64,000 nt of DNA, taken from positions 22,444,001 to 22,508,000 of the forward strand of contig CM060731.1 of the NCBI GenBank assembly GCA_030704615.1, given 5' to 3'. A model generated the notes under the pieces. That model was not told the DNA's origin. It did no database searches and was given only the letters and a program-made list of their open reading frames with translations. Numbering within the stretch: position 1 is the first letter of the stretch; each line of letters starts with the position of its first letter. Below, piece after piece: positions 19,373 through 64,000 of the stretch. Made by a program: the position numbers and the translations under genes. The DNA is from Takakia lepidozioides (Eukaryota > Plantae > Bryophyta).

Positions 19373-19659
19373 CTATGCTGCAACCTCTTGAGCAGTACTC
19401 CCTTCCTGCTCAGTCAATGACAAGGCCTCATCCTGCCCCATCATCTCATCATTGAGAACCTCCTCATCCCGAGAAGAATCCCCAACCTCATCCATCACAG
19501 CTGCCTTGGCTGCCAACTCCCTCTGAACCTCGAGCACCTCCCACGTGTGCCATGGATGTCTACACCCCGTGGTCCTCACCGGCTCGCCCCCACTCGCTGC
19601 CTGTACCGTCTCGGTAGGCAGAGAGACCTGTCAAGGGAAGTGCACTCCGCACTCTACGT

Positions 19660-25240: not shown

Positions 25241-25653
25241 CACCTTGCTCCAGTCTTCTGCATACCGAGAGTGAGAGAGAGAGAGAGGGAGGGAACTGTG
25301 GCACTCAGTAGTGTCTTGTTGTGAAAGAGAGTGGATTCCGTGATTGCTTGCAGGCTTGCGCACCAAGAGAGGGGGAGGAAAGACATGTTTATGGACATGT
25401 TTATGGACGCCATGTACAGGCAAGGGGTCACTCACAGTCTGTTCGAGGCCTTGGTGGCTAACGATAAATCACTGAGGAGGATTACCAGCGGGAAGCACTG
25501 GACTTTGTGCGGGAGCTTGCGGGTCCCCGGCCCATTCCAGTTACGGGGGAGAAAGCCCTGGCTCCTGAATCGCCCGTCTATCCCCAGCGTAGCTCGGCTC
25601 CGCCGTTCCCAAACCCGTCGTCTCCATCCTGCAGCTGAAACTCTAGCACTTTT

Positions 25654-26601: not shown

Positions 26602-27210
26602 ATTGGTCAGAAGACAATTCCAAGCCCGGATCCTAGGGCGCATACAATGCAGCAACCCCAAGAACGGAAAGCGCAAAGTTCTGCTGTTGGCGAGGCTCCA
26701 TAGCAACCATATACACGGAACTCCGTCCTCTGCGCATTGCGAAGGGGATGCCGCTTTTCTGCTCCATAGCCCTGCCCCTTAACCCGCTGCATGACGCTCT
26801 CGCATGATCAAAGCAAATGATTGACAAAGAAGCTGAAGCTAAATTTTGGTCCAAGACCGACCCCGATACAAGAAACAATTGCAACAGCAGGCTCCTCTAT
26901 AAGCTTACTGGTGAAACGATCATCCAGCTTCAAGGATCACGCATAGGTGCCAACTAGCATTTGCTGCTGCATTTTTAAGTATCTCCTTGTGTACTCCAAA
27001 GCCTCTAGTGACTTGATAGCTTCAGCGACTGCAATAACAGTGGCGGCTCCGGCATCGTCATCCTCCAGGCGTTTCAGGCACGCTGAATCTTGTGGTCACA
27101 TTCAATGATATGCTTCTCAAACTAAGCACTACTTATACACAAGTTATCTTGCAAGTGCTAACCCTCAACTCCTACCTTGCACTCACAGGTAAGAGAGCAT
27201 CTCTCTCGAG

Positions 27211-27566
27211 TGATAAACAAGCTAAAAAGAACACACACTCCCAACACAAGAAATATGAAATCCATCGCTATCACTCATTGAAACAGAAGTCGAGCCAGGG
27301 GCACCCCAAGCTATGGGGACTCCACCCCACAACAACTTGTACCCCTACATAAGCACACTCAAACCTAAACACATGCAGGAGCTCAGTCGCGCAGGCTCAA
27401 CTCGAGAGAGATGAGCTACGCGACTGCCGCTCTCGTGAAGATAAGGCCGTTCAGGTGTCAAACTAAACTTGACACCTGATGTAACACTTGACCTAAATCC
27501 AAGTGTTAAATACAAATAACTAGCTTTATTCTAGTTCTTTTCACACTGTGCTTATTTAACTTGACA
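27211..27566 (-). repeat. 5' terminal repeat A1 of element C
   Basis: Minus strand TGTCAAGTT...TTTATCA; 354/356 identical to 15568-15923. Confidence 0.95.
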
Positions 27567-28563
27567 AAACTGTTGTAAGTGTTTTTGGATTAAACCATAT
27601 TAAACACACCTGAAAACAGTTGGGTTTCAGTGACATGTGTGACCTCCAACTGCTGATCAAGACAAATGAAGGTTCATGTTGTTTGACCAAGAGCGTGCTT
27701 GCATTGTGATGAGTCTGGTTGTTATATATTGGTTATGTATCCACCTGGGCTAGAAAACACACTGGTAGTGGCTCTAGGTCTTGCTGTGGGCTTCAACTGC
27801 CCAAAATCCAAGACTGGTGTTGGAACCAGTCGAAGTTCCCTGTGGACTACCAAGACATTTGAGGTTGTTGTGTGACGGACAAAGTGGTGGTTAGGCCTAA
27901 TTGAGTTTTCCAGATGAAACTAATAAGCCCTCCTCTGTGCCAGATCTGTGGTGGACATAGCTGGCTCGTGCGAGCCCAACGGGCAGTTATATCGTCGTTA
28001 TGTACATTTCCTCTCTTCATGGGCATCCTCCAGCCACTGATGTGCCACCTATGAGATATGAGTGGTTAGCAGCCTGTTTGGCAGTCAATTGCCGATTTAG
28101 GGCACTGATTATCCCAACACCTATGAAAGCGGTGGGGTCTTGCATGGGCTTCGTATCTTAGCAGGAATGCGGTGGACAGCAACAGTTTCTGGTCATGTTG
28201 ACCTTGCAGATGCTGGACTGGATTGACGGCTTTGGGTATAGCAAGCTGGCAAGCTGATGAGTATCTGATGCGGCAGTGCAGTGAGCCTTTCGTTCTGGGA
28301 AGTTCAATCTTTCAGGTGCCCTAATGCAGAGAGGGCCTTGCCAGGTTACCGGCAGGGGCAGTAGGGGAACAATCCATGGCACTTTAGTGAAGAAGCCTAT
28401 AATATATGCGGTACATCAGTCCACAGTCACAGAAGCATGTGGTCGAATGTGTTGGCAGTCTCGGCCGCGAAATACGTGCAGGCATAATAGTGCTGGAGGA
28501 TTCCAGTCTGGCAGAGGTTCCAGGAGTATCATTCACATCAAGGAACAAGACCTTATAAAGCTC

Positions 28564-29682
28564 ATGGGGTCTGTACGGGAGCATGCTAGACTTCAGGTAG
28601 CCAAAGGTGCGGTTGGAGCAGCTCAAGAGGTAGGTGTGGAGGTTGCAGATGTTGCTAAGATAAAGGTGGCAGAAAAAGAGAGGTTGATAGCCACATCAGA
28701 GGGAGCGGATCTGCAAGTGGGACTAGCTGCAAGCACTTTGGGAGGCGCACAGGGGAGTCATCAGCCACTCTTTTCGTTTGGAGTGATTACAGACGTGCAA
28801 TATGCTGATATTGACAACAGGTGTTCCTTTCAGGGCGTTCCTCGGTACTATCGGCATAGCCTTGAATCCCTCCACAGGTCTGTGGATGCTTGGAATCATA
28901 AGGGCTGCCTTTCTTTTGCCATTCATTTTGGGGACATTGTTGACGGTTACTGCCCCAGGGAGAACTCCCGGGTAGCATTTAACAGGGTATTGAGTGAGTT
29001 CAATGGCTTTCAGGGGGGTCCTATCTATCACATGCTAGGGAATCACTGTCTATATAACCTGCCACGTGCTGAACTGAACCATTTGCTAGGTATTCCGCCT
29101 TCTTTGGATGGTCACTCCTACTACTCTTTCTGTCCCTACCCTGGGTTTCGATTTGTTGTCTTGGATGGCTATGATGTGAGTGCCCTGGGGCCTGCGGGAC
29201 ACCTGCACACTGAAGCCGGCGTCAGATTACTTGAAACCAAGAACCCAAATGTTGAGAAGAATAGCCCAGAGGGGCTTGATGGAGTTGAGAAAAGGTTTGT
29301 GATGTTCAATGGGGGCATTGGACAGGAGCAGTTAGCCTGGTTTGACAAGATGCTTGAGGAAGCCACTGATTGCCAAGAGAAAGTTTTTGTTTGTTGCCAT
29401 TTGCCACTGAATGCTGAGGCAGCGTCCCCTTCAACACTACTCTGGAACTTTGACGAGGTGATGGAGACAGTCCACAAGCATAAGTGTGTTATTGCCTGCT
29501 TGTCAGGTCATGCTCATAAGGGTGGGCATGCTGTGGACTCACATGGTGTTCACCATAGAGTGCTAGAAGCTGTGCTGGAGTGCCCACCAGGCACTGATGC
29601 ATATGGGCACATAGATGTGTTCCCTGATCATCTCTTGCTTGTTGGAACTGGCCGGATGGCATCTACAGTAATGCATTTTTAG
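28564..29682 (+). CDS. Manganese-dependent ADP-ribose/CDP-alcohol diphosphatase (ADPRibase-Mn), single coding exon
   Basis: QPLFSFGVITDVQYAD, HFGDIVDG, LGNHCLYN, CHLP, SGHAH, LEAVLECPPG metallophosphoesterase motifs; the ORF is open from 28324, and the start MGSV at 28564 is chosen by similarity to plant homologues. Confidence 0.92.
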   Translation: MGSVREHARLQVAKGAVGAAQEVGVEVADVAKIKVAEKERLIATSEGADLQVGLAASTLGGAQGSHQPLFSFGVITDVQYADIDNRCSFQGVPRYYRHSLESLHRSVDAWNHKGCLSFAIHFGDIVDGYCPRENSRVAFNRVLSEFNGFQGGPIYHMLGNHCLYNLPRAELNHLLGIPPSLDGHSYYSFCPYPGFRFVVLDGYDVSALGPAGHLHTEAGVRLLETKNPNVEKNSPEGLDGVEKRFVMFNGGIGQEQLAWFDKMLEEATDCQEKVFVCCHLPLNAEAASPSTLLWNFDEVMETVHKHKCVIACLSGHAHKGGHAVDSHGVHHRVLEAVLECPPGTDAYGHIDVFPDHLLLVGTGRMASTVMHF

Positions 29683-32119: not shown

Positions 32120-35100
32120 CAGAGCTGGCATGAGTTTTTTAAAGATCCTTCACGACGGTGGGACAACCACAATCGCAAGGTGTGGCTTTTTCTTAATGTA
32201 CGAGTGAAGAAGTTTGTCCATCCTGCAAATGTGGGCTCTTGGCTCCTGTTAGTACCATGATTTGGTATTCTTCCTGATGTTTACAAGGTTCTTGGGAGAG
32301 TCAGCTTGGTCATAGCAAGCCGTGTTTCAATCTCTGCCTGCTCAGCTGCACCGTGGTGGTTCTCACAGACCAATCTGACATTACCTGACTACAGACACAG
32401 AGAGAAGCAGATGCAATTCAGAATTGGAACTACTGTAATAAGTAGGGTTGGGGTGTTTGCTGGAAGAACTTCACGCCGTCAGTGTCAGCTGCTAGCAGCA
32501 AGGCTGAGGATGTATTCGTGATTTGTACACAGGCAGGGATAGCTGAAGGACCAGGGATAGAGGTCCAGATTCATCCAAGAGGGCCGGATTTCAAACACAA
32601 GATTACTTCTGATTCCCTGTGGATCAATAGCTACAAGAAATCTGCGTGGGTAGATGGTCAACTAGAAACAGCAGCGGCAGCAGCACAATTGATAGAACAA
32701 GGCACTTCTAAATGAAGGCACCTTCTTCAACACCTTTCAGCCTGTTTTTCCTTATCAGAGTCGTCCCTAAATTTTCATGTTGAATTCTGCAAGATAGCTC
32801 ATTGGTGGATCTATGGTGGTTTTGGAGTGATTTTGACATGTTACTGCCAATGTGGCAACAGGAAAGTATCGAAAAACAGATAACAGAGAAGAGGAGAAGC
32901 TCTGGAATGAATACGTTTCCGATCCCAGTCAATGGTGGAACAATAGGGGCAAAAAGGTGAATGCCTGTTGGAAGCAGACGCAAGTCAGCATAGGAAGTAG
33001 TGTGATAAGTAGGGTTGGGGTGTTTGCTGGAACAATTCTAGGCTGTCATTGTCAGCTGCTAGCAGCAAGGCAAGGATGTATGCATGATTTGTGCAGAGGC
33101 ATGAATAGCTGAAGGAGCAGGGATAGACCGTGGGTCCAGATTCATCCAAGAGGGCCGGACTTCAAGCTCCAGCTTACCTATGATTCCCTGTGGAAGGATA
33201 ACTACAAGAAACCTACATGGGTAGATGGTCAACTGGAAGCCGCAGCAGCAGCGGCTTGATAAAATCAGGCACTGCTAATCAAGGCACCTTCTAACACATT
33301 TCACCCTGTTTTTCCCTCTTATCAGAATCGGCCCTAAATTTCCATGTTGAATTCTGCAAGTTAGCTGGTTGAGTGAACCTTTGATAGTTTGGAGTGACTT
33401 TGACTGATACTGCCAATGTGACAACAGGAAAGTATCCAGAAACAGGTAACAGAGACGAGGAGAAGCTGTGGAATGAATACTTTTCTGACCCCAGTCAATG
33501 GTGGGACAATCGAGGCAAAAAGGTGAATGCCTGTTGGATTACAGAGAGTAGCGGATGCAATTGAGCATAGGAACTAGTGTGATAAGTTGAGTTGGGTGTT
33601 TCCTAGAACAAATATAGGCTGTCATTGTCAGCTGCTAGCAGCAAGGCAAGGATGTATGCATGATTCTTGCTGAGGCATGGATAGCTGAAGGAGCAGGGAT
33701 AGACTGTGGGTCCAGATTCATCCAAGAGGGCCAGATTTCAAGCACAAGATTACCTATGATTCCCTGTGGATCAATAGCTACAAGAAACCTGCATGGGTAG
33801 ATGGTCAACTGGAAGCTGCAGCAGCAGCAGCACAATTGATAAAATCAGGCACTGCTAATCAAGGCACCTTCTTCAACACATTTCACCCTGTTTTTCCCTC
33901 CTATCAGAATCGGCCCTAAATTTCCATGTTGAATTCTGCACCCAACAGGTTGCTGAAGCCAGGCATCATCTCAAGCTTGAGAGGTGTATGCAAATCAAGT
34001 GGGGATTTATACTCACGGTCTCTGGTTTTCACAGCTGTATCAGGGGGGCTGGACATAGGATCCCAAAATTCTCAGAATCTGGGGCAAACTCCTGAATAAG
34101 AGGGACACTGTATAACAATTCAAGGCATGTGAGCGAAGGAATTATTTTGCTTACAAGTGATATCTGGTAGGTGGATGCCACTGTTCTTTGCAGGGATTTA
34201 GTTGAATAGTGTTACCTCTCACAGTCCACTGCGTGCCTAATAATGACAATGCCTTACATGGAGGATGTTGAAAGTGATCATGTCACTAGGTTTTCTTAAG
34301 CTGCCACCCAACTTGATAGGGGTCAGGGAGGCAGAAGAAAGATAAGTTATGATATAAGTAAACCATGTTCTGTTGTCTTGCAAAATTCTTGAGTTCAAGG
34401 TTGTGATGGGAGGATTTTCACAGATCATGTGATGAAACTACTTTCATAAACGGGTGTGAATCTAGTTTGGAGTGACTTTGACATGATACTGCCAATGTGA
34501 CAACAGGAAAGTATCCAAAAACAGGTAACAGATTGTACTCATAAGACGTTGTTTGCCGTAGCCTTGTGGCCATTGACCCCGCGCCCAGTTTGAGCGGGAA
34601 CAAAAGGGACAGAACCTACCTCTGTCAGGGGCTGACGTTGGTAGTAAGACTTACCTCCATATAAAGAATTAATCCGGGTTTTCCAGATATCCTCTAGAAA
34701 TCCCTTCACACAAGCATCAATCTGCTGTGTGTGATTTGCCCAAAAACTAGGCCTCAGGAGGGCCTGGGCTTTTGGCTCAGCCTCGAGACTTTCAAAGTTG
34801 GTAAACAGGGGTACAGGCACAATTCCCTTAATAGATTTGAAGAGAGCGTCTCTTTGGTGAGAGAACCCCGGACAGTGTATCAGAAAATGAATACTGTCTT
34901 CAGATTGCCCACACAACGGGCAATTGCACTCTCCCTTTCCTCTCTGCTTCTGTTTGCTGTTCAAAGGTAGGCTTCCTGCCCTGAGTTTAAATTTCAGTCT
35001 AGTGCCGAGAGTGGGTAGACCCTTGAGGTCATCCAAGATGTCCTCCCCCATGTCACAGACTGGAAACAAGTTCAGGGAAGTTTTCTGCCTAACTTCATTT

Positions 35101-38100
35101 TCATCAGACAATCTCATGGCAACAGACATGGCTGAGGACACTACAGCCTCTAAGTCAGATTTATCCAGCAGGGTCAAGACTTGCGGATCCAGGTCCAGGT
35201 CCTTGAGGATCTCTTCTACTCTCTTCTGCCAGGACTTAGCCTGTTTGACAGGGCGGTCCTGTTTCCAAGATATAGAGTTGATTAACTTAGGATATCTGGT
35301 GTTGGGCATATGTTGCAGCTGACCCCACCATCTGACCTTGAATTCATCTCGTCGGGAGCTTAAGGACGGAATGCCAAACTCACCCCGAACAGCCACATTG
35401 GCTGTTTTGGAGCATGCTGACATACACTCCTTAAGCACCCCCACTTGAATGGATTCTAGAGACTTAGCCTGGTTGGAGTTATCAACCCATATAGCAGATC
35501 CGTACTCCAAGGCAGGTCTAATAACGTGACAAAGCATGGTTTTCTTAACCTCAGAGTTGACCCCTCTGCAGTGGAAAAATTTAGTGAGCCCCAGAGCTTT
35601 GCCCTTGCCAGTTTGAACAACTTTCCGGATATGTGCATCCCAATTACAATTGGAGGAGAACTCAATGCCCAGGTAAGTGTAGGAAGGGAGGACCGGGATC
35701 TCTTGGCTACCCCACTGCCACTTAAGATCACTTCCTCCCTCTCCTCTGTCGTTGAATGCTACCACTGCACATTTGCTGACATTAGCCTCTAGCCCCCAAA
35801 GATCAAAGTATCTCTTCGCGCAATCAATCAACTCCTGGAGATTGGTTGGAGTCTCCCCTATGCCTGCGAAGTCATCCGCAAACATAAGGGCTGGTATGGT
35901 GGTATCACCCACCCTTAACCCAAATCCCTCACTTTCCACATCCTCGAGGAGTTGATTGATGAAAACATTGAAGAGCAGAGGGGAGAGAGTACATCCTTGA
36001 GCTACACCTTGGTCTATGTCAAAGAAGTTGGACTTCTGTCCGTTAACAGTGACACAGCTTTTGGTGTGAGCATACAAGTTGTGGACAACTCTCCACATCT
36101 TTCCCTTGATCCCACAAGACCAGAGGTGGAACCATAGGCCATCCCTGTGTCATAAGCCTTTTTGACATCCAGGAAAAAGACATAAGTGGGTTTCCCTTCT
36201 TTTTTCCTTCCCTGGATAATCTGGCTTAGAGTGAAGATATGATCCACACAGCCCCTGTTTCGCCGAAAGCCAGCTTGGCCTTCGTGGAAACAACCTCTAG
36301 ACTCCAGATCAACCTCGAGACGAGTACTTATAACTCTGCAGAATGTCTTGCCAACAGCATTGAGGAGCGTGATGCCACGGTAGTTCCCCGGTTCTTCTCT
36401 GTCACCCTTCTTGTATAGATTGACAATGACCCCCTGTCGCCAGCGAAAGGGGATCATTTCAGTCTTCCAGATAAGGTTAAAGAGGAGAACTAGGGCCTCT
36501 ATCATGGGATCGCCACCGTGCTTGATAAGCTCGTTGACAATACCATCAGGTCCACTAGCTTTATATCCATTTAAATGTTCAATTGCTTCCACAATCTCAG
36601 AAGAACTAATGGGAGCATTATAAGCCATTGAAATATACTCCAGTTCATCAGGGCTGTTTTGAATCATAGGAACAGTTTTTCCAACTGTGTCCCTCCATTC
36701 AGCAGAAGACCCCTCACTGTTAGACCTAGAAGTTCTGCCAAGGATACTGTAGTGAGTTTCAAAGGTTTTGACAATGTCAACCGATGAAGTCACCACTGCA
36801 CCTTTAGTAGTCTTCAGCGCTTGTACTTGCTGACCGTTTTTCGGTTTGTACAAACGTTGAAGGGCCAACCAGAATTTCTTGTCATTACCACCATGGTGGT
36901 TTGAGTTTATTTCACTGTATAACTTGTCCCAGTATAATTTCTTCTGAGACCTAACAAGCTGATTGATATCTTTACGGAGCTGGTAGTACCTCGCCCACAA
37001 TTCTCTGTTGGTTTCCAAATTGCAGCACTCTTTATAGAGGGCTCGTCTCTCAGCTATCTTGAGTTTAATCTCATTAGTCCACCAATTAACTGCTCTACCG
37101 CAGACAATTAGTTTCCTCCCAATGATCTTGTCAGCCACGGAGGAAACGAAACTCTCCCAAGAGTCCACTGCTCTTTCGACTTCATTTCTTGCGTTAACAG
37201 AGCGTGACTGAAGTTCTTGGAGGGATTGGACAAAATGAGGGAGAGCCTCTTGCAAGGCCTGGACGTACTCAGCCTTGACCTCCTCATTGTGGAATTTTTC
37301 TATGCGCCACTTCCGAATCGAACGTTTCACAGATCTCTTGGTGGTGGGAAAACACCTTTTGATCTCAGTCCAAACCAGGAAGTGGTCAGAGGTACCAATA
37401 TCAGTTCTGTCGATCAACACATTGGCACACTGGGGTAACAAAATTTTGTCCATTATGATATAGTCCACAATGGAACGTTCCCCAGTTTGGGGTTTCTCAC
37501 GAGTCCACTGCACTTGGTCACCTCTTGTCCTGTTATTCAAGGTCAAAAGCTGAAGCTCTTCTAGACAGTTAATTAACCGTCTGCCATTAGAATTCAGCTC
37601 GTCCTCACCAAAAGGTCCAATGATATCGTCTTGATGGATCCCTTTGCCCACCCGGGCATTGAAGTCCCCCAATAGTACCACCTGACCTTTGGCAAGGAAC
37701 GAAGCACAGTCCAGCTTTACATCTTCGAAGGCCTTGTCTGCGTCAGCAACTAAGGGTCCCCTCTGTGGGCATGTAAACACAACCAACAAAGAGGTCCTTT
37801 GTACTCATGCCGTCCTTCAAATTCAGTTTTAGCCAGATACTATGCTCGTACCTCAAACCCTTGTTGATAATTTCACAATTGTCAAACAAGAAATCACGGA
37901 CAAAGAATCCAACCCCTTTTTGACCGCGTTTGGCAGAGGCTGCCTTGAGAGTACACATCTTACCTGCCCATTTATAACCAATGACATCTCCAACCAGTTT
38001 ATCCGACGTTTCCCATGTTTCTTGCCCAGCACAGATATGAATATCATTAGTCCGAAGAACTTGTCCCACTTCAAGTTGTTTCCTTTGGTTGGTCAACCCT

Positions 38101-39280
38101 GAGAAGTTGTTGAAAGTGGCCAGCCGCAAGCCAGCCCTTTGCGTGTGAATTGTTTGTCGTCTAGGTAGCTTGTGATTGCTCCTGGACGGCCAACCGTTCT
38201 GCAAAGGGGGGACAGTTACCCCATGTATAGATTTTGCTCGTCTTGTGTAAACTTTGAGAATTGGTAAGCCATTCAGGGTACCAAATCTTTCAGTTACACG
38301 ACAGAGGTAACAGAGATGAGGAGAAGCTGTGGAATGAATACTTTTCTGGCCCCAGTCAATGGTGGGACAACCGAGGCAAAAAGGTGAATGCCTGTTAGAT
38401 TACAGAGAGTAGCAGTCAGCATAGGAACTAGTGTGATAAGCTGAGTTGGGTGTTTCCTAGAACAAATGTAGGCTGTCATTGTCAGCTGCTAGCAGCAAGG
38501 CAAGGATGAATGCATGATTTGTGCAGAGGCATGGATAGCTGAAGGAGCAGGGATAGAGTGTGGGTCCAGATTCATCCAAGAGGGCCAGATTCCAAGCACA
38601 AGATTACCTATGATTCCCTGTGGATCAATAGCTACAAGAATCTTGCATGGGTAGATGGTCAACTGGAAGCCGCAGCAGCAGCGGCACAATTGATAAAATC
38701 AGGCACTGCTAATCAAGGCACCTTCTTCAACACATTTCACCCTGTTTTTCCCTCTTATCAGAATTGGCCCTAAATTTCCATGTTGAATTCTGCAAGTTAG
38801 CTGGTTGAGTGAATCTAGTTTGGAGTGACTTTGACACGATACTGCCAATGTGACAACAGGAAAGTATCCAAAAACAGGTAACAGAGATGAGGAGAAGCTG
38901 CGGAACAAATACTTTTCTGACCCCAGTCAATGGTGGGACAACCGAGGCAAAAAGGTGAATGCCTGTTAGATTACAGTGAGTAGCGGACGAATTCAGCATA
39001 GGAACTAGTGTGATAAGCTGAGTTGGGTGTTTCCTGGAACAAATGTAGGCTGTCATTGTCAGCTGCTAGCAACAAGGCAAGGATGAATGCATGACTTGTG
39101 CAGAGGCATAGATAGCTGAAGGAGCAGGGATAGAGTGTGGGTCCAGATTCATCCAAGAGGACCAGATTTCAAGCACAAGATTACCTATGATTCCCTGTGG
39201 ATCATTAGCTACAAGAAACCTGCATGGGTAGATGGTCAACTAAAGGCAGCAGCTGCAGCGGCACAGTTGATAAAATCAGG
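32120..39280 (+). repeat. Five tandem two-exon modules (~570 bp) encoding OSB-type PDF motifs
   Basis: A exons 32120-32179, 32862-32956, 33428-33522, 34507-34532+38315-38383 and 38860-38954 end AAG|GT (e.g. LWNEYFSDPSQWWDNRGKK). B exons start CAG|ATT at 32569, 33140, 33716, 38570 and 39147 (e.g. IHPRGPDFKHKITYDSLWINSYKKPAWVDGQL). Confidence 0.88.
34533..38304 (-). mobile_element. Non-LTR retrotransposon (APE-RT LINE, RTEX/L2-like), frameshifted
   Basis: APE (GQETW, LLGDFNARVG, IVDY, SDH), RT (QGCTLSP, FADD), C-terminal CPLC...HFLIHC; 10-bp TSD aggtaacaga (34523-34532 and 38305-38314). Confidence 0.93.
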
Positions 39281-41768
39281 CACCTCAACCATGACCACAG
39301 CTTCTGAAAGAGGATCAAGAGAGGGAGTCCATAATGTCTCTTCTGGTTCTTCTGGGCATGTGAAGGTGCTTTGTGAGGCAGGCAGACTGAAAGAGGCTCT
39401 ACAGACTTTAACCCAAGGAGGCATTTCAGCAGATTCAGATACATATGTCTGTCTCTTGCTTACGTGCATCAAGATGAAAGGTCTGGAAGCTGGAAAGCAG
39501 GTGCACACTCACATTATCCAAAGTGGATTCACGCCAAGTGTTTTTCTCCTCAACACCCTCGTCAACATGTATGTTAAGTGCGGGAGCATCATGAATGCTC
39601 ACCAAGTGTTCAACGGAATGCCTCAACGATCTTTGATCACGTGGAATATAATGTTGGCAGGATTTACCAAGCATGGGTGTGGTAGGAATGCTTTGGAGAC
39701 CTATGAGCAAATGCTGCGCGAAGGGGTGAAGCCCAACCACGTCACATTTGTGTGCATTTGCAATGCATGTGCAAGCCTGGCAGCTCTGGAAAAGGGCAAA
39801 GAGGTCCATGGCGACATTGTCAGAGCTGGAATTGTACCAACTGTCATTCTGAACAATACTCTCGTGGACATGTATGCAAAATGTGGGTGCATCGAGGATG
39901 CAAAGGGAGTGTTCGACAGTATGGCTGAACGAAATGTGGTGTCGTGGAGTGCGATGATTGCAGGATATGCACAGCAAGGCCGCGGGATGGAGGCTTTGGA
40001 GACCTATGAGCAAATGATGTGCGAAGGGGTGAAGCCCAACCACATAACGTTTGTTTGCATTTGCAATGCGTGTGCAAGCCTGGCAGCCCTGGAAAAGAGC
40101 AAAGAGGTGCATGCTGACATCATCAAAGCTGGAATTGTACCAAATGTCACTCTGAACACTGCCCTGGTGGACATGTATGCCAAATGTGGGAGCATTGAGG
40201 ATGCAAAGGGAGTGTTCAACAATATGGCTGAACGAGATGTGGTGTCGTGGAGTGCAATGATTGCAGGATATGCACAGCAAGGGCGCGGGATGGAGGCTTT
40301 GGAGACCTACGAGCAAATGATGTGCAAAGGGGTGAAGCCCAACCACATCACGTTTGTTTGTGTTTGCAATGCGTATGCAAGCCTGGGATCCCTGGAAAAG
40401 GGGAAAGAGGTCCATGGTGACATCGTCAAAGCTGGAATTGTACCAAATGTCATTCTGAACACTGCCCTGGTGGACATGTATGCCAAATGTGGGAGCATTA
40501 AGGATGCAAAGGCAGTTTTCAACAATATGGCTGAACGAAATGTGGTGTCGTGGAGCGCGATGATTGCAGGGTATGCACAGCAGGGACGTGGGGTGGAGGC
40601 TTTGGAGACCTATGAGCAAATGATGGGGGAAGGGGTGAAGCCCAACCACATCACGTTTGTGTGTGTTTGCAATGCGTGTGCAAGCCTGGCAGCTCTGGAA
40701 AAGGGCAAAGAGGTCCATGGCGACATTGTCAGAGCTGGAATTGGACCCGATGTCATTCTGAACAATGCCCTCGTGGACATGTATGCCAAATGTGGGTGCA
40801 TTGAGCATGCGAAGGGAGTGTTCGACAATATGGCTGAACGAAATGTGGTGTCGTGGAACGCGATGATCGCAGGATATGCCCAGCATGGTTGTCATAGGGA
40901 GGTCCTGCAACTATTTGAAGGAATGCAAAAGAACGGCTTGAAGCCGGACAGTGTCACCTTTATATGTCTTCTCTCTGCATGCAGCCACACTGGCTTACTG
41001 AATGAAGGAAGACGCTACTTTGATTTCCTGAGTCAAGATCATGGTGTCACTCCGACAGTAAAGCACTTTGGCTGTATGGTGGACCTTCTTGGACGTGCGG
41101 GACAACTGGATGAGGCAGTGGAACTGATTAATAAGATGCCAATCAATCCAGATGTTGTGGTGTGGAAGGCCTTGCTTGGTGCCTGCAGAATCCATGGCAA
41201 TGTGGAGATGGCTGAACGTGCGGCAACATCTATCCTCAAGTGGGATGAACATGATGCCGAGACTTATGTGTTGCTATCAAACATCTATGCTGCAGCTGGC
41301 AGGTGGGATGATACTGCAAAGGTGAGAAGAATGATGAAGGTCAGAGGGGTTACAAAGGAGCCAGGTCGCTGCTGCATTGAGGTTGGTAACAGGGTGCACA
41401 CCTTCGTTGCAGATGACAAGTTGCATCCCAGAATTAAGGAAATCCATGCTGAGCTGAGAAGATTGTCTGGGCTGATGAAGGAGGCGGGGTATGTGCCTGA
41501 CACGCGCTTTGTATTGCATGATGTGGGGGAGGAGGAAAAGAAATTTTCTCTTTGCCACCACAGTGAGAAGCTGGCCATTGGTTTTGGGCTGATCAGCACG
41601 ACCCCTAGGACGCCTCTCCGTCTCATTAAGAATCTTCGAGTGTGCGGTGACTGCCACACCTCCACCAAATTCATCTCAAAGATTGTTGGCCGAGCAATTG
41701 TTGTACGGGACGCCAACCGCTTTCACCACTTTGAAGATGGGATTTGTTCTTGTGGGGATTACTGGTGA
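39147..41768 (+). CDS. PLS-E1-E2-DYW pentatricopeptide RNA-editing factor; terminal exon begins with the second half of a PDF motif
   Basis: 17 P/L/S motifs, PG box (KEPGRCCIEV), HSEKLA, CGDCH, C-terminal DYW; splices in frame from exon 38860-38954. Confidence 0.95.
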   Translation: MHPRGPDFKHKITYDSLWIISYKKPAWVDGQLKAAAAAAQLIKSGTSTMTTASERGSREGVHNVSSGSSGHVKVLCEAGRLKEALQTLTQGGISADSDTYVCLLLTCIKMKGLEAGKQVHTHIIQSGFTPSVFLLNTLVNMYVKCGSIMNAHQVFNGMPQRSLITWNIMLAGFTKHGCGRNALETYEQMLREGVKPNHVTFVCICNACASLAALEKGKEVHGDIVRAGIVPTVILNNTLVDMYAKCGCIEDAKGVFDSMAERNVVSWSAMIAGYAQQGRGMEALETYEQMMCEGVKPNHITFVCICNACASLAALEKSKEVHADIIKAGIVPNVTLNTALVDMYAKCGSIEDAKGVFNNMAERDVVSWSAMIAGYAQQGRGMEALETYEQMMCKGVKPNHITFVCVCNAYASLGSLEKGKEVHGDIVKAGIVPNVILNTALVDMYAKCGSIKDAKAVFNNMAERNVVSWSAMIAGYAQQGRGVEALETYEQMMGEGVKPNHITFVCVCNACASLAALEKGKEVHGDIVRAGIGPDVILNNALVDMYAKCGCIEHAKGVFDNMAERNVVSWNAMIAGYAQHGCHREVLQLFEGMQKNGLKPDSVTFICLLSACSHTGLLNEGRRYFDFLSQDHGVTPTVKHFGCMVDLLGRAGQLDEAVELINKMPINPDVVVWKALLGACRIHGNVEMAERAATSILKWDEHDAETYVLLSNIYAAAGRWDDTAKVRRMMKVRGVTKEPGRCCIEVGNRVHTFVADDKLHPRIKEIHAELRRLSGLMKEAGYVPDTRFVLHDVGEEEKKFSLCHHSEKLAIGFGLISTTPRTPLRLIKNLRVCGDCHTSTKFISKIVGRAIVVRDANRFHHFEDGICSCGDYW

Positions 41769-55330: not shown

Positions 55331-57519
55331 GACACATCTTGGCTTGCATGAGTCCTCAACATCAAGTTTCAGATCAATTGACTGTTCTTCCACTACCTCT
55401 TCTGCTAATTCACATTTTTTCTTTCCTCAGCTGAATCCTCTGCAGGAGTTTCTTTTGCCTCCACCACCTCGCCACTTTCCACGGGAGAATCATTTACATG
55501 AGATCCCTAAGCGGTTCTTGTGCGTCGTTGGACCTGCCATCAGCGTGCGAACACGAATCCAGTTGAAATTCAAGATGAAAACTAAGGAGGAGCGTGGGAG
55601 AACATTCCGAGCATCTCGGTTTGGATTTATGGTAGTACACAAAGGTTTTTGGTATATGGTAGTAATGGTTTAGGGTACTAAGGGTCTGGCTTAAGCCTAT
55701 GGAAGGGTTCAGGGAAGGGTAAAGCGAAGGGTAAGGGTTTAGGGGTGATGGTAAAGGTATTGTCAAGTTATTTTACCACTAGTGTGAAACTAGCTAGGAA
55801 ATAGCTAGCTTTTACATATTGACATTTGGGATTGGCCCAAGTGTCAATCCAGGGGTCAAGGCAGATTTAGGCCCTGGAGTGGTTATCTTCACGGCAAGCG
55901 CATGAGGCTCATCTTTCTCGAGTTGAGCCTCACCGCGCCTAGCTATGGCGCCGTAGTGTGGATTCCCCATGGCGTGGGGTGCACTTGGCTTGACTTGTAT
56001 TTGAGTGATGAGGTTATATATGCATGAGTTTATGCTTCAGCTTTGTGAGCTCGCATGAGCTTGTGCTTGTATCCTTCATCTTTATCACTCGAGAAAGATC
56101 AGCTCGTATCTATGAGTGCTAGATACGAGTTAGTTGTAGCACTTGTGGTTTTTGCTTGAGATTGAGAGAAACCAAGTTGTTATGCAAGGAGCACCATGGA
56201 GCTCTTGGTTGTTAGAAGCGGAGGCGATGTGGGTTACGAGGTGGTAGACCTTGGCATTCGATCTTCAGCTTCAGAGATGAAAGCACCATGCTGCAGGTAA
56301 TTCCAGAGCACCTTGATGGTTTCAGATTGTGTACATGCATGAGCAAGCACGATTGGGAAGAGGACCAGTCAAGAGCAAGTTATAGTGGCTTTGGTGGCAA
56401 AGCTGAGAACTGGACTTGGGAATGCGAGCTTTCATTGTGTGAAGGATTGCAAGACCAAGCGAAAGGGCTGATTTGACTTGGGGCAAATCAATGCACTTTG
56501 TGGAGTATGGTGAGATTGGGTTTCAATCTCGAGCTTCAGCATTGAGAGGGCTCTTGTCATGGCAAGAGCAGGGCTGGAACAGGAGCTAAGAGGTGCGGCA
56601 AGGCCATGGAATGTGCACCTAGGGTTTCAGAGCTCGGAAGAAGAGCTCTTGCACCACAAGAGAAGTGTCTTGTGGCTGGAAATGTAAGCCTTAGGGTTTC
56701 AGGAGCTTGGCAAAGGCTGTGGAGTGCTTAGTCTTGTCTTAGAGAGCATCAAGGAGCCAAAGAGCCAAGATAGGGGGCTGATATCTCTTGTGTGAAGAGG
56801 TTGCATGTGTGGAGCATGTATTCAGCTCATTGAAGCTTCCATCTTCAAGCTTGGAGGGCAAGCAAGGAAGAGGGAAGGGGCTGGTTTCCCTGTAGGGCAT
56901 GTAGAGCATGCTTTCAGCCTGCTGAAGCTTGTATTTTCAGGTTTGTGGGTGCAAGAAATGAAGCAAATGAGCTGATTCTCTTATGGTGAGAGTGGGGCAT
57001 GTGTGGAGCATGCCTTCAGCCCATTGAGGCTCTTGTTTTCAAGCCTTAGAGAGCTAGAACGGAAGGTCTAGGGCTGGTTTCCACTTGGAGTGAAAGAAAA
57101 GCACGTGTAGGGCCTATGTGAGTTGGGGTTTCAACTTCAAGCTTGAAGGGAGCGCAACTCTTGAAGCAACAGGTGTAGAGGGCTGGAATAGGCTCCAAGA
57201 CAGATGCTATGGCCAATGAGAGTGCTTGAATGAATGCTCACAAGGGCTGGGAACCAGCAGGGCTTGGTTGTTTGCCATTGAGTTTAGTGGCGTGTTTGGG
57301 GAGGCTAAGTGAGAAAGAAGGCTTGGTTTGTGGCAACCACCTCATGGCTTAGGGCTACTATGGTGGTGTGTGGGAGCCGAAAGAGCAAGGATACCTTGCT
57401 GATTTCCTCACAGCCACCATAGCTCGGTGGAAAGAAGCCTAGAGTCCAAGAGACACAAACCCTAGCTTGGCGTGGCTAAACCCCTTGGAGAAATGGCTAA
57501 ACTGCCAGAGCGGCCATGT

Positions 57520-58445
57520 GATGGGCTGTGACAGGCTGTGCCCTGTGCCCTGTGGAGCTGTGACGGGCTGTGATGGGCTGTGACGGGCTGTGACAGGCTG
57601 TGATGGGCTGTGATGGGCTGTGATGGGCTGTGCCCTGTGCCCTTTGGGGCTGTGACGGGCTGTGTCAGGCTGTGACAGGTTGTGCCCAGTGGCCTTTGGG
57701 GCTGTGACGGGCTGTGCGGGGCTGTGACAGGCTGTGCCCTGAGGCCTGTGGGGCTGTGACGGGCTGTGACAGGCTGTGCCCATGGCCTTTGGGGCTGTGA
57801 CGGGTTGTGACAGGCTGTGATGGGCTGTGACAGGCTGTGCCCTGTGCCCTGTGGGGCTGTGACGGGCTGTGTCAGGCTGTGACAGGCTGTGCCCAGTGGC
57901 CTTTGGGGCTGTGACGGGCTGTGCGGGCTGTGACAGGCTGTGCCCATGGCCTTTGGGGCTGTGACGGGCTGTGAGGGGCTGTGACATGCCGTGCCCATGG
58001 CCTTTGGGGCTGTGACGGGCTGTGACGGGCTGTGACGGGCTGTGACATGCCGTGCCCATGGCCTTTGGGGCTGTGACGGGCTGTGAGGGGCTGTGACAGG
58101 CCGTGCCTGAGGCCTTTGAGGCTGTGACGGGCTGTGAGGGGCTGTGACATGCCGTGCCTGAGGCCTTTGGGGCTGTGACGGGCTATGAGGGGCTGTGACA
58201 GGCCGTGCCTGAGGCCTTTGAGGCTGTGAGGGGCTGTGAGGGGCTGTGACAGGCCGTGCCTGAGGCCTTTGAGGCTGTGACGGGCTGTGAGGGGCTGTGA
58301 CAGGCCGTGCCTGAGGCCTTTGGGGCTGTGACAGGCTGTGAGGGGCTGTGACAGGCCGTGCCTGAGGCCTTTGAGGCTGTGACAGGCTGTTAGGGGCTGC
58401 GACAGGCTGTGCCCAGTGGCCTGTGGGACTGTGACGGCTGTGACC
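57520..58445. repeat. GC-rich 10-mer (GGGCTGTGAC-like) tandem array with higher-order units, in the leader of D
   Basis: Visible tandem gggctgtgac/aggctgtgac, interspersed with gcccatggcctttg and gcctgaggcctttg. Confidence 0.95.
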
Positions 58446-59181
58446 AGTGAGCTGTGTGGGCCTGTGCTGGTCTGTGGTGGCCCGTATTGACCTGTGGACG
58501 GCCTGTGCTGACTCGTGGAGGCACTGGTGGACTGCCTAAGGACTGGCATGTGGTCTGGAAGGTCAAATTTTGAAGCTCGTGGAGGGCGGTTTGAGGAGTA
58601 TCTTCATGATATTCCCATGGTCATGCAAGTGAGGGTAGAGAGGAGAGGCAGAGTGTTGGGATGAGAGCATGCTGGGGTTAGGCATTGCTTTAGCTTCTCT
58701 TCCTCGTAGTTTCCACCCTCTCATTAGGCCAAGACCTTTCCGTAGGTGGAGGCAAGAGTCAGTCCGGGTTTGGGCTGGGGTGTCCTTGCAGGAGCAACAC
58801 CGTGGAGTTGTTTTTGGTGTGGGGGAGTTGTCGATCTGATTTCTTGTGTTTGGATCCCCTCCATACCTGCATGCTTGACTGTGCGCCATGCTAGTTTTGT
58901 GTGGGCGCTTGTTTTTATAGGTGATTGGTCCGGATTTGATCACCGGCTAGTCCTAGAGCATGCTGTCGATGGTGAGACTGGGGTGATGACCAGCCAGACC
59001 ATCATTGTTTCTCCTGTGGTGAGGTTGGAGGTGATGACCAACCAACCATAGGAGTGTTTGCGGTGGATGCAGGTACAGGTGTAGGCTATGTTAGGAACTT
59101 AGTATTCCAAACCATAAGCCGCAACAGGTTCTCTACCCGGTTACCTTGTGGAGAGGGGGTTAGGGACATGTTCATGACCGG

Positions 59182-61848
59182 TTGAGTGTCAACACGGAGG
59201 TGCCACTAGTTGCTGGGGACAGTGCCGGTTCGAGCACTAGCGATACTAGTGGGTACACGAGACGAGGTGTGCGGTTTAGGCCACCTTCACCTCCTGTGTC
59301 TTCCACGGAAGGTTCTGATTCGGATTGTGAATCAGGAGGACTCATACCGGCGGTGCAAGTTGTTTCTTTGCCATTGTTGTGGGACACAATGGAGGAGATG
59401 TATGGAGCTACCAAGGGGCCACGAAGGTACTCTGGGGCGGTGGGCACCATCGAGTTGGATGATTTTATCCAAGAGTTTGATAGTTGGTGTGATTTGCAGC
59501 AAATGCGCAATCCACAACTATTTACGCCTTTCATGGCATGGAAGGGGCTGTTTCAGCACCTTGAGGGGCCGCCTATGGATGATTACCATGAGTTCAGGCG
59601 GGGGCATGAGGTTGAGATCGAGGAGTGGAGGATGTACTGGTCACCCGACTATGTCTCCATCACTAGGGGCACTAGAGCCACGAGGGCAGTGGCTACACCT
59701 GCCGCTGCACCGGCAGCTTCAGCAAGCAGCAGTGGGACTGGTGGTACAGTAGCTACGACGTCCACCCAAGCCACTACCGCACCAGCACTAGCACCCGTGC
59801 CTGCCTTCAACCCTGTTGTGGAGTTCTTCGAAGAGTTGAGAGGGAACTACCAAGGGGTGAGGACAGAGAAGTTGCGGAGCTTGCAAGAGTTCCAACGGAA
59901 GCCGACCGAGAGCTTGAGGGAGGCTTTCACTCGCATGAGGCGCTTGATAAATGTAACCCAAGGGGTTACGGAAGCTCAGGCAGTCCAATTCTGGTATGGG
60001 ATATTGGACAAGGAGCTGAGGAGAAGGGTGCGGGATGCAACTCTCCTACAAGCGGCCCAACCCACCTTAGCAAATGTGTTTTTGCTGGCAGAGCGGATAG
60101 AGCTCAACATGGTGGAGGAACGAGTGGTCATGGTGGGATTTGCTAAGGAGACACCACGGGGTAGTGGTGCTCCTAGCCAACCACTACCTCAACGTGCTCA
60201 AGGCAACAAGGGGGCTCAGGTGAAGCTCAGGGAAGGGCAGAGAGGACCTCAGATGCAGGGGTCTCTCCCTTCATTTGCTGGCCAACAACGGGCGGATGTG
60301 GTGTGCTGGACATGTGGAGGACCCCATGTCAAGAAGGATTGTCCAGAGGGAGGCAAAGGGCCGGCACATGCACAGCCTGCACAGTTACAGTGTGGGCATT
60401 GTGGCAAACACGGGCATGGAGAGGCTCAGTGTTATGGTTTGCATCCTGAGTTGCGCCCAGGCCAGTTCCAAGGGAACAATGGTGGCCGGGGGCGAGGTGG
60501 AGCAGCCCAGAGAGGACGAGGTGGCCAGCCACGAGGCCAAGGGCAAGCTCAACGTGGCCAAGGACGCGGAGGTCAGGGTGTTGACCAAGGCATGGCCAAC
60601 CGGCTTCAGCAGCTAGAGCAGAGGCTCGCTGCCATGGCTACAGCTCAGGTGGTACCGGCTCTAAGGCCGGATGGTCCACCTCCTGCTCCTGAGGGAGGAG
60701 ATATGGGAGGCATGGGATTCATGTGTGGAGCAGCACTACCACTAGTGCAGGTGGAGTCTGCTGCAGCCGTGACTCGAGGAGCAGCACGAGTTCCTGAGCC
60801 ACGAGGTGCAGAGGTGGAGTTGGATCCACAGCGTGGGGAGGCAAGCCGTCAGGCTAGGCTTCCTCAGTCATTCACATTGGCGGAGACAGTGTCGACGCCA
60901 TCCATGGCACCTAGTTCTCGCCCGACTGTTACCGAGGCGGAGGTTACTATGCCATTGGGGAGAGCTACACGGGTAGCACCACTACCTAGTGTTGCCAAGG
61001 CTACGGCAGCTAGTGTGCTGCTAGGAGCGGCCACATCTGTGTGCCAGGCTCCATTGTTCTCGGCTACCATGATTGCGACGCCGGGGGTAAGACCAGCTGA
61101 GGTGTTCAGGCTGGCAGCTACACTCTGTGAGAGTGGGGAGGTTACTTCATCTTCTGCGGAGATAGTGGGAGGTGTAGTGCCGGAGGGATCCTCGGATTTG
61201 AGGGTCAAGACTGCCACGGCGGCGCCATGGCAAGCTGCAGCTGCCAGGTTGATGGAGCTGCCAGCTAGGCCAGCCATTGAGCGCGCCATGGTGACACCTG
61301 GAGTTGTCATGTTAGACAACCAGGATGGCATTTTCTGTTTGAGTGGACCGGCAGGCAAGAGGTACCGGCCACTGCGGGTCTTGTTGGACTCGGGAGCTCA
61401 GCCATTGATGCTGGGCAGAGCTGCTATTGCAGGCTTGGGCCTCACGGAGGCGTAAATGGAGCCTTGTCCTTTCCAGATACAGACGTCTCTGGGAGGATCG
61501 GAGCAGGCTCGGGGCATGACACGGCGTGAGTTGGCTATCAGACTACGGCCGGATCACCCTACAGATGGCTCAGTGATGCGAGCCAAGGCCATTGTGACAG
61601 ACGCAGTCTCATACGATGTCCTGGTTGGTGGGGCAGTGTTGTACCCCATGGGCTTCACCCTGGATTTTTGGGAGGAGTCAGCTTCCTATAGGCCTGCATG
61701 GCAGTCAGGGGAGGGCCGGCGTGTGCAGCTCCCTGTGACGTTCATAGGAGGAGTTGCGGTTGCCCAGCGAGGCAAGATGCCGACACTAGCAGCATTCACA
61801 GCGGCAGTGAGTTGGCCTAGAGAGTTGCTTGAGGGCAATGCTCATTAG
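59182..61848 (+). CDS. Element D Gag (two Zn knuckles, RGG-rich tract) and protease
   Basis: CWTCGGPHVKKDC, CGHCGKHGHGEAQC, GGRGRGG, VLLDSGAQ; stop at 61453-61455 where C has Asp. Confidence 0.9.
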
Positions 61849-62090: not shown

Positions 62091-63060
62091 GATGAAGGCA
62101 TTTGTCTTCTGGACTTGTTTGGCGGGATCAGCACCGGATTGGCTGCTGTGTTACAAGCAGGTGTACGAGTTTGGCGTTACCTGTATGTGGAGAGGGATGA
62201 GACTGCACGACGCGTTTCACTTCGCCATGTTGCTCAGTTGGTGCAGCGGTACCCTGAGTTGTTGTCGGTGTCTGCAATTCGTGGATATCAGCAGGCCTTG
62301 CCACAGACATTTCGTTGCTGGGGGCGCAGGATTTGGAGCGGGTTGGCTCCATTGATCTGGTAGTGGCAGGTTGGCCCTGCCAAGGGCATTCATCATCCGG
62401 GCATGGCAATGGATTGCGAGACTCGAGGTCGGGTCTGTTTTGGGAGATGGTGCGGGTTTTGCGCCACTTGCAGCTTCATCAAGCTGTATCTCCAGCATAC
62501 ATCTTGGAGAATGTGCCACTGATGGGCGATTCTCGGGCCAGGGTGATGGCCAGTGTGCATCAAGTCCGGTCGTGGCTTGGGTCAGCAGTGTTGCTAGATG
62601 CAGCTACAGTGGGGTCACGGGCTCATCGTCCACGGCTATGGTGGACTAACTTGATGCCACCCGCACTGCTCAAGCGTGCATTTGATGGGGTGCAGCGGCC
62701 AGCACATCTCACAGTGGATAACATTCTGGACACAGGGAGGCAGTCTCAGCGTGTGAGACACGATGACCGTTCGCCTTTGGCAGTGGTCAACAAGGTGGGT
62801 CAACCACGAGCAGCATTACCTACACTGCTCAGCTTCCCAGGATCGCATGCTTTCCGGGATAGTGGACCTGGCCTCCTGTGGGATGCTCAGTTGCAGCAGT
62901 TAGTGGAGCCTAATGCTGACGAGCGTGAGCGGGCAATGGGTTTTACCACTGGTACCACGGCGGTGTCGTCTCTTTCTGAGGCATCACGTCGTCAAGTGTT
63001 GGGGCAAGCAATGGATCTCAATTGCTTGACCTGGATTATCAGCTTGGCTCTGGCTGAGCA
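62091..63060 (+). CDS. C5 cytosine DNA methyltransferase domain of element D (one frameshift near 62310)
   Basis: Motif I LDLFGGISTG, II YVERD, IV AGWPCQ (PC at 62375-62380), VI LENV, VIII HRPR, IX/X ERERAMGF...LGQAM. Confidence 0.92.
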
Positions 63061-63342
63061 ACGCAGAGTGCGGAGTACACTTCCCTCAATGGTCTCTCTG
63101 CCTACCGAGACGGTACAAGCAGTGAGTGGGGGCGAGCATGTGAGGACCACGGGTGCATGCATCCATGGCACACGTGGGAGGTGCTCGAGGTTCAGAGGGA
63201 GTTGGCAGCCAAGGCGGCTGTGATAGATGAGGTTGGGGATTCTTCTCGGGTTGAGGAGGTCCTCAATGATGAGATGATGGGGCAGGATGAGGTCTTGTCA
63301 TTGACTGAGCAGGCATGGAGTACTGCTCAAGAGGTTGCAGCA

Positions 63343-63351
63343 TAGCAACCA
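63343..63351 (+). promoter_or_regulatory. Putative stop-codon readthrough signal UAG-CAA-CCA
   Basis: Matches the UAG-CAR-YYA consensus; identical in C (19375-19367, minus); the downstream frame runs straight into RT. Confidence 0.7.
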
Positions 63352-64000
63352 CGGGACGCGTCCTCTACCTCTAAGCCCACTGGACTTAAGGTTGTAGTTA
63401 CGGAGGACAATTGGGAGCCTGACATTGGACCCATTGTCACCGGAGGAGAGAGACGACGTATACGGCGGTTCCTGAGGGCTTACAGGAATTGCTTTGCCTT
63501 CAGTCTGAAGGACTTGGGAGCACTGAAGGGTCAAGAGATCCGTATTGAGTTGGCCACTGACACGCCAATCTTTCGGAGACCCTATAGATACAGTGACATG
63601 GAGAGGTCTTTGATTCAGATGAGGACTCAAGATCTCTGGGAGGCAGGTTTGGTGGAGCTCTCTGGTGGAGAGTATGCTTCAGCCACAGTGATGCCAGCCA
63701 AGAAGGATGTCTATGGCAATTGGACGGAGAGACGTATGTGCGGTGATTACCGGCCTGTAAATCGTCAGACCAAGTCCGATAAGTATGCCATGCCAACACC
63801 AGAGGAGATCTTTGATGCCATCGGGCATGCTAAGGCCTTTAGCACTTTGGATTTACGATCCGGATATCACCAGTTGCCAATCAAGGAGGCGGACAAGCAG
63901 AAGACCGCATTCTGGGGGATCAATGAGCACGGCAAGGATTGCCTATACCAGTGGCGGTTCTTACCATTTGGGCTTAAGAATGCTCCTGCAGAGTTTCAGA
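63346..64000 (+). CDS. Element D RT (N-terminal part, runs off the window)
   Basis: Open frame ...RMCGDYRPVN...[12 protein letters not shown]...LPFGLKNAPAEFQ. Confidence 0.92.

Follow-up and report, generated by a model that had tools for sequence, protein, structure and literature searches.

The window, i.e., the whole stretch of 64 kb of DNA that was analysed, contains two copies of a Gypsy retrotransposon, here referred to as C and D, in which the open reading frame (ORF) for Gag and protease also encodes, as its C-terminal domain, a cytosine-C5 DNA methyltransferase (MTase) and ends at a conserved stop codon, so that the enzyme lies outside pol proper. With a DNMT3-like enzyme and split terminal repeats, the family extends the plan known from KnitGypsy-Dnmt3 of Klebsormidium nitens to a land plant. 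An earlier note, made from the letters of the DNA alone, had described a Gypsy family of a land plant, and this is supported by an adjoining PPR-DYW gene and by liverwort and moss proteins, which are the closest named homologues of the MTase.

The MTase domain of D extends over 62091-63085 on the plus strand and is interrupted by one frame break at about 62303; that of C extends over 19635-20640 on the minus strand and carries a cluster of indels in its N-terminal third. Both were delimited by translation and Pfam, and the search with PF00145 proposed in the earlier note matched both copies in the 64-kb window, D in the ORF 62258-63220 (plus strand, E 1e-12) and C at 19967-20464 (minus strand, E 4.5e-13). 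The catalytic motifs I to X follow each other in canonical order, as the note had read them. In D, motif I (LDLFGGISTG) is found at about 62109-62138, motif IV (GWPCQ) with PCQ at 62375, motif VI (ENV) at 62507, motif VIII (HRPR) at 62627 and motifs IX/X (ERERAMGF...GQAMD) at 63002; the corresponding positions on the minus strand in C are 20344 (PCQ), 20212 (ENV), 20092 (RPR) and 19718 (GQAM). Six-frame translation and Pfam also confirmed the location between protease and reverse transcriptase (RT) in both copies: the aspartic-protease motif VLLDSGA lies 5' of the MTase (D 61384, C 21348) and RT lies 3' of it, followed in C by RNase H, integrase and a PHD finger, while D leaves the window. The statement that the enzyme is situated inside the polyprotein holds in part, as it shares its ORF with Gag and protease but is separated from RT by an in-frame TAG in both copies.

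C and D are 86% identical over 5.3 kb and approximately 95-96% identical over the MTase core and RT. The frame breaks of C and D are not the same, in agreement with the earlier reading of their lesions, and in C 14 indels of 1-4 nt are packed into approximately 270 nt (20665-20416). Since the two A repeats of C differ at 2 of 356 positions and contigs from three DNA runs contain alternative alleles at several of the C indels, many of the frame breaks probably stem from errors in the assembly of long reads or are confined to this copy.

Regarding the type of enzyme, a search of solved structures with a 54-sequence profile placed DNMT3A/B/C at the top (E 2e-22), followed by DRM (8e-10) and bacterial enzymes (3e-7), and a single homologue used as query gave the same ranking. 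An AlphaFold2 model of the homologue P0001, which is 72% identical to D (pLDDT 89.9), was best matched by DNMT3A in Foldseek (E 2e-19, TM 0.63/0.81). By profile and modelled fold the enzyme is classified as DNMT3-like with DNMT3A/B as closest solved relatives, as the earlier note had suspected. An origin from DRM, which the note had already dismissed, is excluded because the motif order is unpermuted, and the profile ranking of DNMT3 above DRM agrees with this. An origin from phages was also considered and appears less likely: phage MTases share 24-31% identity, and they fit the fold less well than DNMT3, the best viral match to the P0001 model having E 1e-16 and an rmsd of 13.6. The catalytic Cys, the absence of which from the family had been considered in the earlier note, is kept in 173 of the 180 homologues that cover the site; the Glu of ENV is retained by 203 of 217 homologues, and 224 of 244 have the second Arg of RxR (258 aligned homologues).

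Upstream of the MTase, D encodes Gag with CCHC-like knuckles and an RGG region as well as the start of the protease (DSG at 61384) in 59164-61455 (plus strand; stop at 61453), with 67% identity of the translation to the N-terminus of a Marchantia Gag. The translated counterpart in C, with DSG at 21348, covers 21170-23585 on the minus strand and contains many frame breaks. Downstream of the MTase both copies contain an amber stop in the readthrough-type context TAG CAA CCA, in D at 63343-63351 (plus strand; TAG 63343-63345) and in C at 19367-19375 (minus strand; TAG 19375-19373). A stop of the form TAG/TAA-CAR-YYN was found between MTase and RT in 62 of 72 loci, repeated insertions included (48 TAG, 14 TAA), compared to 15 of 152 control windows. 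The strict form CAR-YYA follows 7 of these 62 stops; distant families have TAG CAG TTA and TAG CAA TCA, and in a moss-type family the stop is followed by CAA-CCC-ATG, where reinitiation at the ATG may be possible. MTase and RT are in the same frame with the stop in between in 39 of 58 metagenome loci, and natural Gag-PR-DNMT ORFs terminate 98-149 aa past motif X. No conserved structure 3' of the stop was evident in three folds. CAR-YYA is the readthrough signal of TMV, for which 6-10% readthrough was reported in transgenic plants (PMC2754532). The synthesis of RT, RNase H, integrase and PHD finger would likely need readthrough, and the enzyme would thereby be made at the level of Gag.

The RT of D (63346-64000, plus strand; PF00078) is cut by the end of the window. 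In C, all on the minus strand, RT and RNase H (17745-19372; PF00078, PF17917) are followed by a DDE integrase with H2C2 zinc finger and core (16924-17832; PF17921, PF00665) and by an integrase C-terminus containing the PHD finger (16258-16749; PF00628); a Pfam match to a chromodomain was not found in the element, which has the PHD finger instead. Closest solved relatives of this finger are those of CHD4, PHF12, KDM5A/B and ATXR5. The PHD fingers of CHD4, PHF12, KDM5 and ATXR5 prefer unmethylated H3K4.

The termini of the element are split. Copy C, read on the minus strand, has the layout GTTT, A1, PBS, coding region, PPT, B1, GC, A2, B2, GTTT, and the same plan (A-PBS-coding-PPT-B-gc-A-B) also occurs in a metagenome family. 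The target-site duplication GTTT (27567-27570 and 15479-15482) flanks A and B2 rather than A1 and A2. The left terminal repeat A1 comprises 356 nt (27211-27566; 354/356 identical to A2) and is followed by the primer binding site (27198-27210), for which an exact 13-nt complement, the predicted self-primer, lies inside A1 itself (27401-27413; 0 of 5000 shuffles). At the other end follow the polypurine tract (16002-16012), the motif of which is shared with related loci, and B1 (15926-16001), which is without the first bases present in other copies; the joint 15568-16001 was recovered in 3 of 4 runs, twice. The palindrome GACA-GC-TGTC (15920-15929; 11 related loci), a putative integrase cut site, spans the join of B1 and A2. 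A2 (15568-15923) is joined bluntly to B2 (15483-15567), which ends in GACA and at which the family depth ends. In D, the left repeat A (55761-56087, plus strand; 327 nt, TGTCA...TATCA) is approximately 70% like that of C, the predicted self-primer (55911-55922) is an exact 12-nt complement (0 of 5000 shuffles) of the primer binding site (56088-56099), and tandem repeats with periods of 10 and 51 nt occupy 57493-58464 in the 5' non-coding region. Directly 3' of the primer binding site both copies have a hairpin (C 27152-27197, minus strand; D 56100-56145, plus strand) with differing letters in the stem, possibly a packaging or priming element.

The self-primer pairing of C (13 nt) and D (12 nt) is related by compensatory change. 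Self-pairing of at least 9 nt was found in 9 of 16 metagenome left ends, in 7 of them at a site approximately 31 nt past the TATA box; two other families have different paired primer and PBS sequences, and in L052 a different self-pairing 13-mer was read by eye. The 64-kb window contains no tRNA genes. Duplications of 4 bp flank 7 of 7 distinct insertions for which both ends are available, and the palindrome, with at most 2 changes, is present in 11 loci of at least 3 families, the MTases of which are about 50% identical; a CG lies directly 5' of it in most copies of three families. Inserted copies begin with TGTCA and end with GACA, the central 2 nt being missing. Such ends are the footprint of retroviral-type 3' processing. 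Of 8 distinct junctions between A2 and B2, 6 are blunt and 2 contain an insert; the insert of L061/L067 begins with 9 nt of the primer binding site, as expected if this junction was newly made. From the positions of PPT and primer binding site it follows that the LTR of the cDNA would be B+gc+A, and the inserted form, a permutation of this cDNA, fits one that was joined end to end and opened at the palindrome within the LTR. In L059 (14406-16991), a second, more distant RH-IN-PHD element with the same B-palindrome-A-B end was observed directly after the first.

Two protein searches resulted in 258 and 96 homologues. Among the matches listed (120 of the 258 and 96 of the 96), those with names are from Marchantia, Calypogeia, Riccia and Sphagnum (52-75% identity), and a Closterium homologue with 41% identity is also among the matches listed. 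Several of the homologues in liverworts and mosses are intact ORFs. In Marchantia, several Gag-PR-DNMT ORFs of 1278-1281 aa with intact catalytic motifs are annotated as hypothetical proteins. Mp4g09160 is a natural intact ORF of Marchantia with the MTase domain at residues about 880-1200. Of the 15 members listed for the Marchantia cluster, 4 are located on the V sex chromosome (Mp_Vg00370, Mp_Vg00540, Mp_Vg00690 and Mp_Vg00480). A metagenome scan resulted in 177 relatives, of which 80 were kept, most of them like the Sphagnum protein P0162, and no relative was found in the viral contigs and prokaryote genomes searched. In contigs of the source organism the depth over the MTase core equals the depth over RT, and the family depth stops at B2. 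Contigs of run X12, possibly an RNA run, also cover parts of the family, which is not counted here as a sign of expression. The contig depth of the element in run X2 is about 1e6 compared to about 60 on the unique flank, suggesting hundreds of copies or more, the summed contig depth being no copy number.

Comparison of dN/dS gave values between families, with unsaturated dS, of 0.07-0.21 for the MTase and of 0.03-0.12 for RT, indicating that the MTase is under purifying selection between families. Constraint is weaker between C and D, where the MTase has 18 synonymous and 16 non-synonymous codon differences among 259 codons and RT has 8 versus 1 among 130 codons, i.e., the MTase is less constrained than RT. 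In the moss-type family, omega for shared variants is 0.56 (MTase) versus 0.37 (RT), and private changes have an omega of 1.1. A domain restricted to the two copies of the window and evolving neutrally, as the earlier note had envisaged as the contrary outcome, is at odds with the liverwort and moss homologues and with this selection. Compared with elements of other hosts (L008 and Marchantia P0127), identity reaches 81% in the RT-RNaseH region (17745-19295 of the window) and 67% at the Gag N-terminus. With synonymous sites at saturation in the comparison with every other family, the data give no sign of recent horizontal transfer; the likeness across hosts, at saturated synonymous sites, may reflect strong constraint or old horizontal transfer.

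Quick IQ-TREE trees (SH-aLRT only, element sequences only) of the MTase (47 rows) and of RT (37 rows) show the same main clades. One of these unites the elements of the window with liverwort and moss-type elements (SH-aLRT 98 for MTase, 97 for RT), and a separate clade is formed by elements of the order RT-RH-DNMT-IN-PHD (99 and 100, respectively). In this second clade (P0165-P0215 and cluster members) the DNMT is placed between RNase H and integrase, and 29 proteins show the complete order. P0245, a distant relative, is without the stop and has one ORF; together with these 29 proteins this indicates that dosage at the level of Gag is not needed in every lineage.

Several further features were observed in the window. 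Within the 5' region of C, in antisense, lies an N-terminal fragment of a squalene-hopene cyclase (25639-26601, plus strand; PF13249), a low-copy cargo that is not family-wide: its depth is far below that of the element, and its contig depth is several times that of the unique flank. The fragment is intronless, its best listed matches have 45-58% identity, the top named ones are bacterial (50-54%) and 0 of the 120 matches listed is a named plant protein; it may be a gene of bacterial provenance that was later captured by the element, with modest amplification. A separate Gypsy element at 6471-11703 (plus strand) also carries unusual cargo, a dUTPase 5' of RT (PF00692, E 2e-9). The PPR-DYW gene is an intact, intronless PPR-E-DYW RNA-editing gene (39120-41768, plus strand) with a 303-nt internal repeat and best matches in Ginkgo, Diphasiastrum, Sphagnum and Cryptomeria (57-62%). 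Together with the list of MTase homologues, this gene indicates a non-flowering land plant as host. An ORF at 28285-29682 (plus strand) resembles a metallophosphoesterase, with a likeness to Mn-dependent ADP-ribose/CDP-alcohol diphosphatase, and has no Pfam match. Finally, a LINE with endonuclease and RT (34539-38399, minus strand) lies within a tandem repeat array of about 570 nt units (flanks 32404-34532 and 38267-39294).

The reading we put forward, for which we see the chances as evenly balanced, is that the DNMT3-like enzyme, encoded on the Gag-protease ORF, is incorporated into the particle at the level of the capsid protein and methylates the double-stranded cDNA of the element, either ahead of insertion or during it. 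It is based on the conserved catalytic residues, the dosage at Gag level, a likely long-lived extrachromosomal stage and the CG activity of a dinoflagellate retroelement DNMT3. The cycle would start from ORF1 (Gag-PR-DNMT), which stops at the conserved TAG-CAR-YYN with RT-RH-IN-PHD following in the same frame. Leaky readthrough would make pol, with DNMT in perhaps tenfold excess over RT and integrase, and the protease would release the DNMT. As suggested by the pairing, the 5' end of the RNA may pair with the primer binding site and prime its own reverse transcription; the resulting cDNA, with B+gc+A as LTR, would then be joined at its ends. The footprint at the insertions points to integrase cutting between GACA, GC and TGTC with loss of the central 2 nt, giving A...B-gc-A-B and the 4-bp duplication. 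In the weakest step, the DNMT3 would set CG methylation on the waiting cDNA, and the copy would arrive pre-marked in methylated, H3K4-unmethylated chromatin picked by the PHD finger. Against this reading, the element shows no extra CpG depletion of the kind that self-methylation might leave (observed/expected 0.52, window average 0.49), and its codon boundaries are not poorer in CpG than those of other elements or of host genes. The symmetric decay of moss-type copies at CG and CHG also counts against it. A dinoflagellate retroelement DNMT3 methylates CG de novo in yeast, and for the Klebsormidium Gypsy DNMT3 no methylation was seen in yeast, a result called inconclusive by the authors (de Mendoza et al., 2018, PMC5890265).

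It is unlikely, though worth weighing, that the enzyme acts on the host side, methylating the target site or its flanks together with the pre-integration complex or silencing resident copies in the sense of a copy-number control. A PHD finger closest to those of CHD4, KDM5 and ATXR5 would bring the enzyme to chromatin. In animals, the ADD domain brings DNMT3 to chromatin. Moreover, active lineages show no extra CpG loss, as would suit an enzyme that leaves its own heritable template untouched, and both options were raised by de Mendoza et al. (2018, PMC5890265). However, in the clade of the window the DNMT is on ORF1 and not fused to the integrase, and the decay of moss-type copies affects both strands alike at CG (0.19) and CHG (0.23), as from host silencing. 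Less probable still appears a domain that mainly binds DNA or flips bases, holding the cDNA ends for joining or marking the CG next to one palindrome so that integrase cuts only there. Dosage at the level of Gag would suit such a structural function, most copies in three families have the CG next to the palindrome, the one-sided choice of the cut site is unexplained, and the Klebsormidium enzyme was without activity in yeast (PMC5890265); nevertheless, conservation extends to motif I, which binds SAM, and to each of the catalytic residues Cys, Glu and Arg. The view that the MTase was captured from a host and persists without selection in a small number of dead copies is largely refuted and highly improbable. 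Both window copies are broken, the private changes in the moss-type family are at omega 1.1 and C also holds the captured cyclase fragment, but the MTase core matches RT in contig depth, homologues occur across liverworts, mosses and many metagenome elements, and low dN/dS between families, congruent trees and intact natural ORFs all speak against this view.

A further alternative alters the joining of the cDNA ends only and is a serious one, even though it has less than an even chance: the split ends could arise without a closed circle if RT jumps from end to end on linear cDNA and recopies B, and integrase trims at the palindromes. This could account for the missing A-B-A...B form, as an A-B-A left end was found in 0 of approximately 16 distinct left ends, though a two-LTR circle has two equal palindromes. 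On the other side, the PBS remnant and the imprecise A2-B2 inserts (2/8) resemble the junctions of two-LTR circles. Two-LTR circle junctions with such remnants are known from retroviruses. About 10 right ends carry B only, and many A...B copies in which the duplications are correct (L020, L040) could derive from one-LTR circles; assembly collapse or recombination between B1 and B2 also fits, and as L040 and L063 differ at one site, either of these may have made some of the B-only ends.

Returning to the family itself, its closest known counterpart is KnitGypsy-Dnmt3, which carries DNMT3 in the Pol ORF and DIRS-like repeats and was reported to be confined to the lineage of K. nitens (de Mendoza et al., 2018, PMC5890265). 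Both are Gypsy elements of the PR-RT-RH-IN type with DDE integrase, an unpermuted DNMT3-type MTase, purifying selection on the DNMT and A-coding-B-A-B repeats as in DIRS. However, in KnitGypsy-Dnmt3 the DNMT is described as sharing its ORF with RT and RNase H, whereas in the window family it ends the Gag-PR ORF at the conserved stop; the host is Klebsormidium in the one case and a land plant in the other, and the named relatives of the window family are from liverworts and mosses. The available parts of the source (PMC5890265) mention for KnitGypsy-Dnmt3 neither self-priming, 4-bp duplications and palindrome nor readthrough and PHD finger, and no named Klebsormidium protein was found among the homologues listed (120 of 258; 96 of 96). 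SymbioDIRS-Dnmt3, the DNMT3 of which was shown to be CG-active in yeast, is similar in having a retroelement DNMT3, split direct repeats and likely cDNA methylation (PMC5890265), but it uses a tyrosine recombinase, whereas the window family has a DDE integrase and a 4-bp duplication. Membership in DIRS/Ngaro was rejected, as the window family has an rve integrase and 4-bp duplications (7/7) and not a tyrosine recombinase without duplication. The Tf1/Sushi and Tcn1 chromoviruses are Ty3/Gypsy elements with predicted self-priming, as predicted from pairing in the window family, and Tcn1 has been reported from both mosses and club-mosses (Neumann et al., 2019, PMC6317226). In contrast to the PHD finger, DNMT and split ends of the window family, Tf1/Tcn1 have ordinary paired TG...CA LTRs between the target-site duplications and a chromodomain 3' of the integrase. 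REM1 of Chlamydomonas is a Gypsy element with PHD finger, active and with intergenic bias. The same is reported for Chlamydomonas Gypsy-7a_cRei, the section on which mentions neither DNMT nor split repeats, unlike the window family (bioRxiv 2022.06.16.496473). EpiLTRs and DAM-LTRs are, like the window family, LTR elements with DNA methyltransferases and a chromatin reader, but their DNMT is sister to DNMT4 and accompanied by Dam methylase and chromodomain; the same source names the streptophyte Gypsy-DNMT3 as a separate acquisition (bioRxiv 10.64898/2026.05.21.726589), and PMC12344493 likewise speaks of streptophytes. No report of a land-plant Gypsy-DNMT3 was found in the freely accessible full-text literature searched, and the available parts of 10.1101/363937, 10.1101/2021.02.12.428880, PMC9985172 and PMC10952607 do not mention such elements.

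The de novo set of REXdb was built with LTR-FINDER rules, i.e., paired LTRs and target-site duplication (PMC6317226), which the split-end structure likely fails. Such elements are likely overlooked by LTR finders and may inflate the DNMT counts of bryophytes. What retrotransposon DNMTs do has been an unanswered question since 2018, as there is little genetics for their hosts, dinoflagellates and Klebsormidium; with full-length Gag-PR-DNMT ORFs and methylation mutants such as Mpmet, Mpdnmt3b and Mpcmta in Marchantia polymorpha the question becomes directly testable. From the stop codon a dosage of the enzyme is predicted, and from the ends a circular precursor, which would be accessible to sequencing with methylation calls. 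Moreover, a compact, cofactor-free DNMT3 domain would possibly be a useful tool, if active. It is conceivable, although we regard it as improbable in its full extent, that a green-plant Gypsy clade in liverworts, mosses and possibly vascular plants proceeds from self-priming via an end-joined circle and capsid-level DNMT3 methylation to integrase cleavage at a palindrome chosen by the methyl mark. If true, this would be the first LTR element that writes its own epigenetic state prior to insertion and uses circles as normal precursor.
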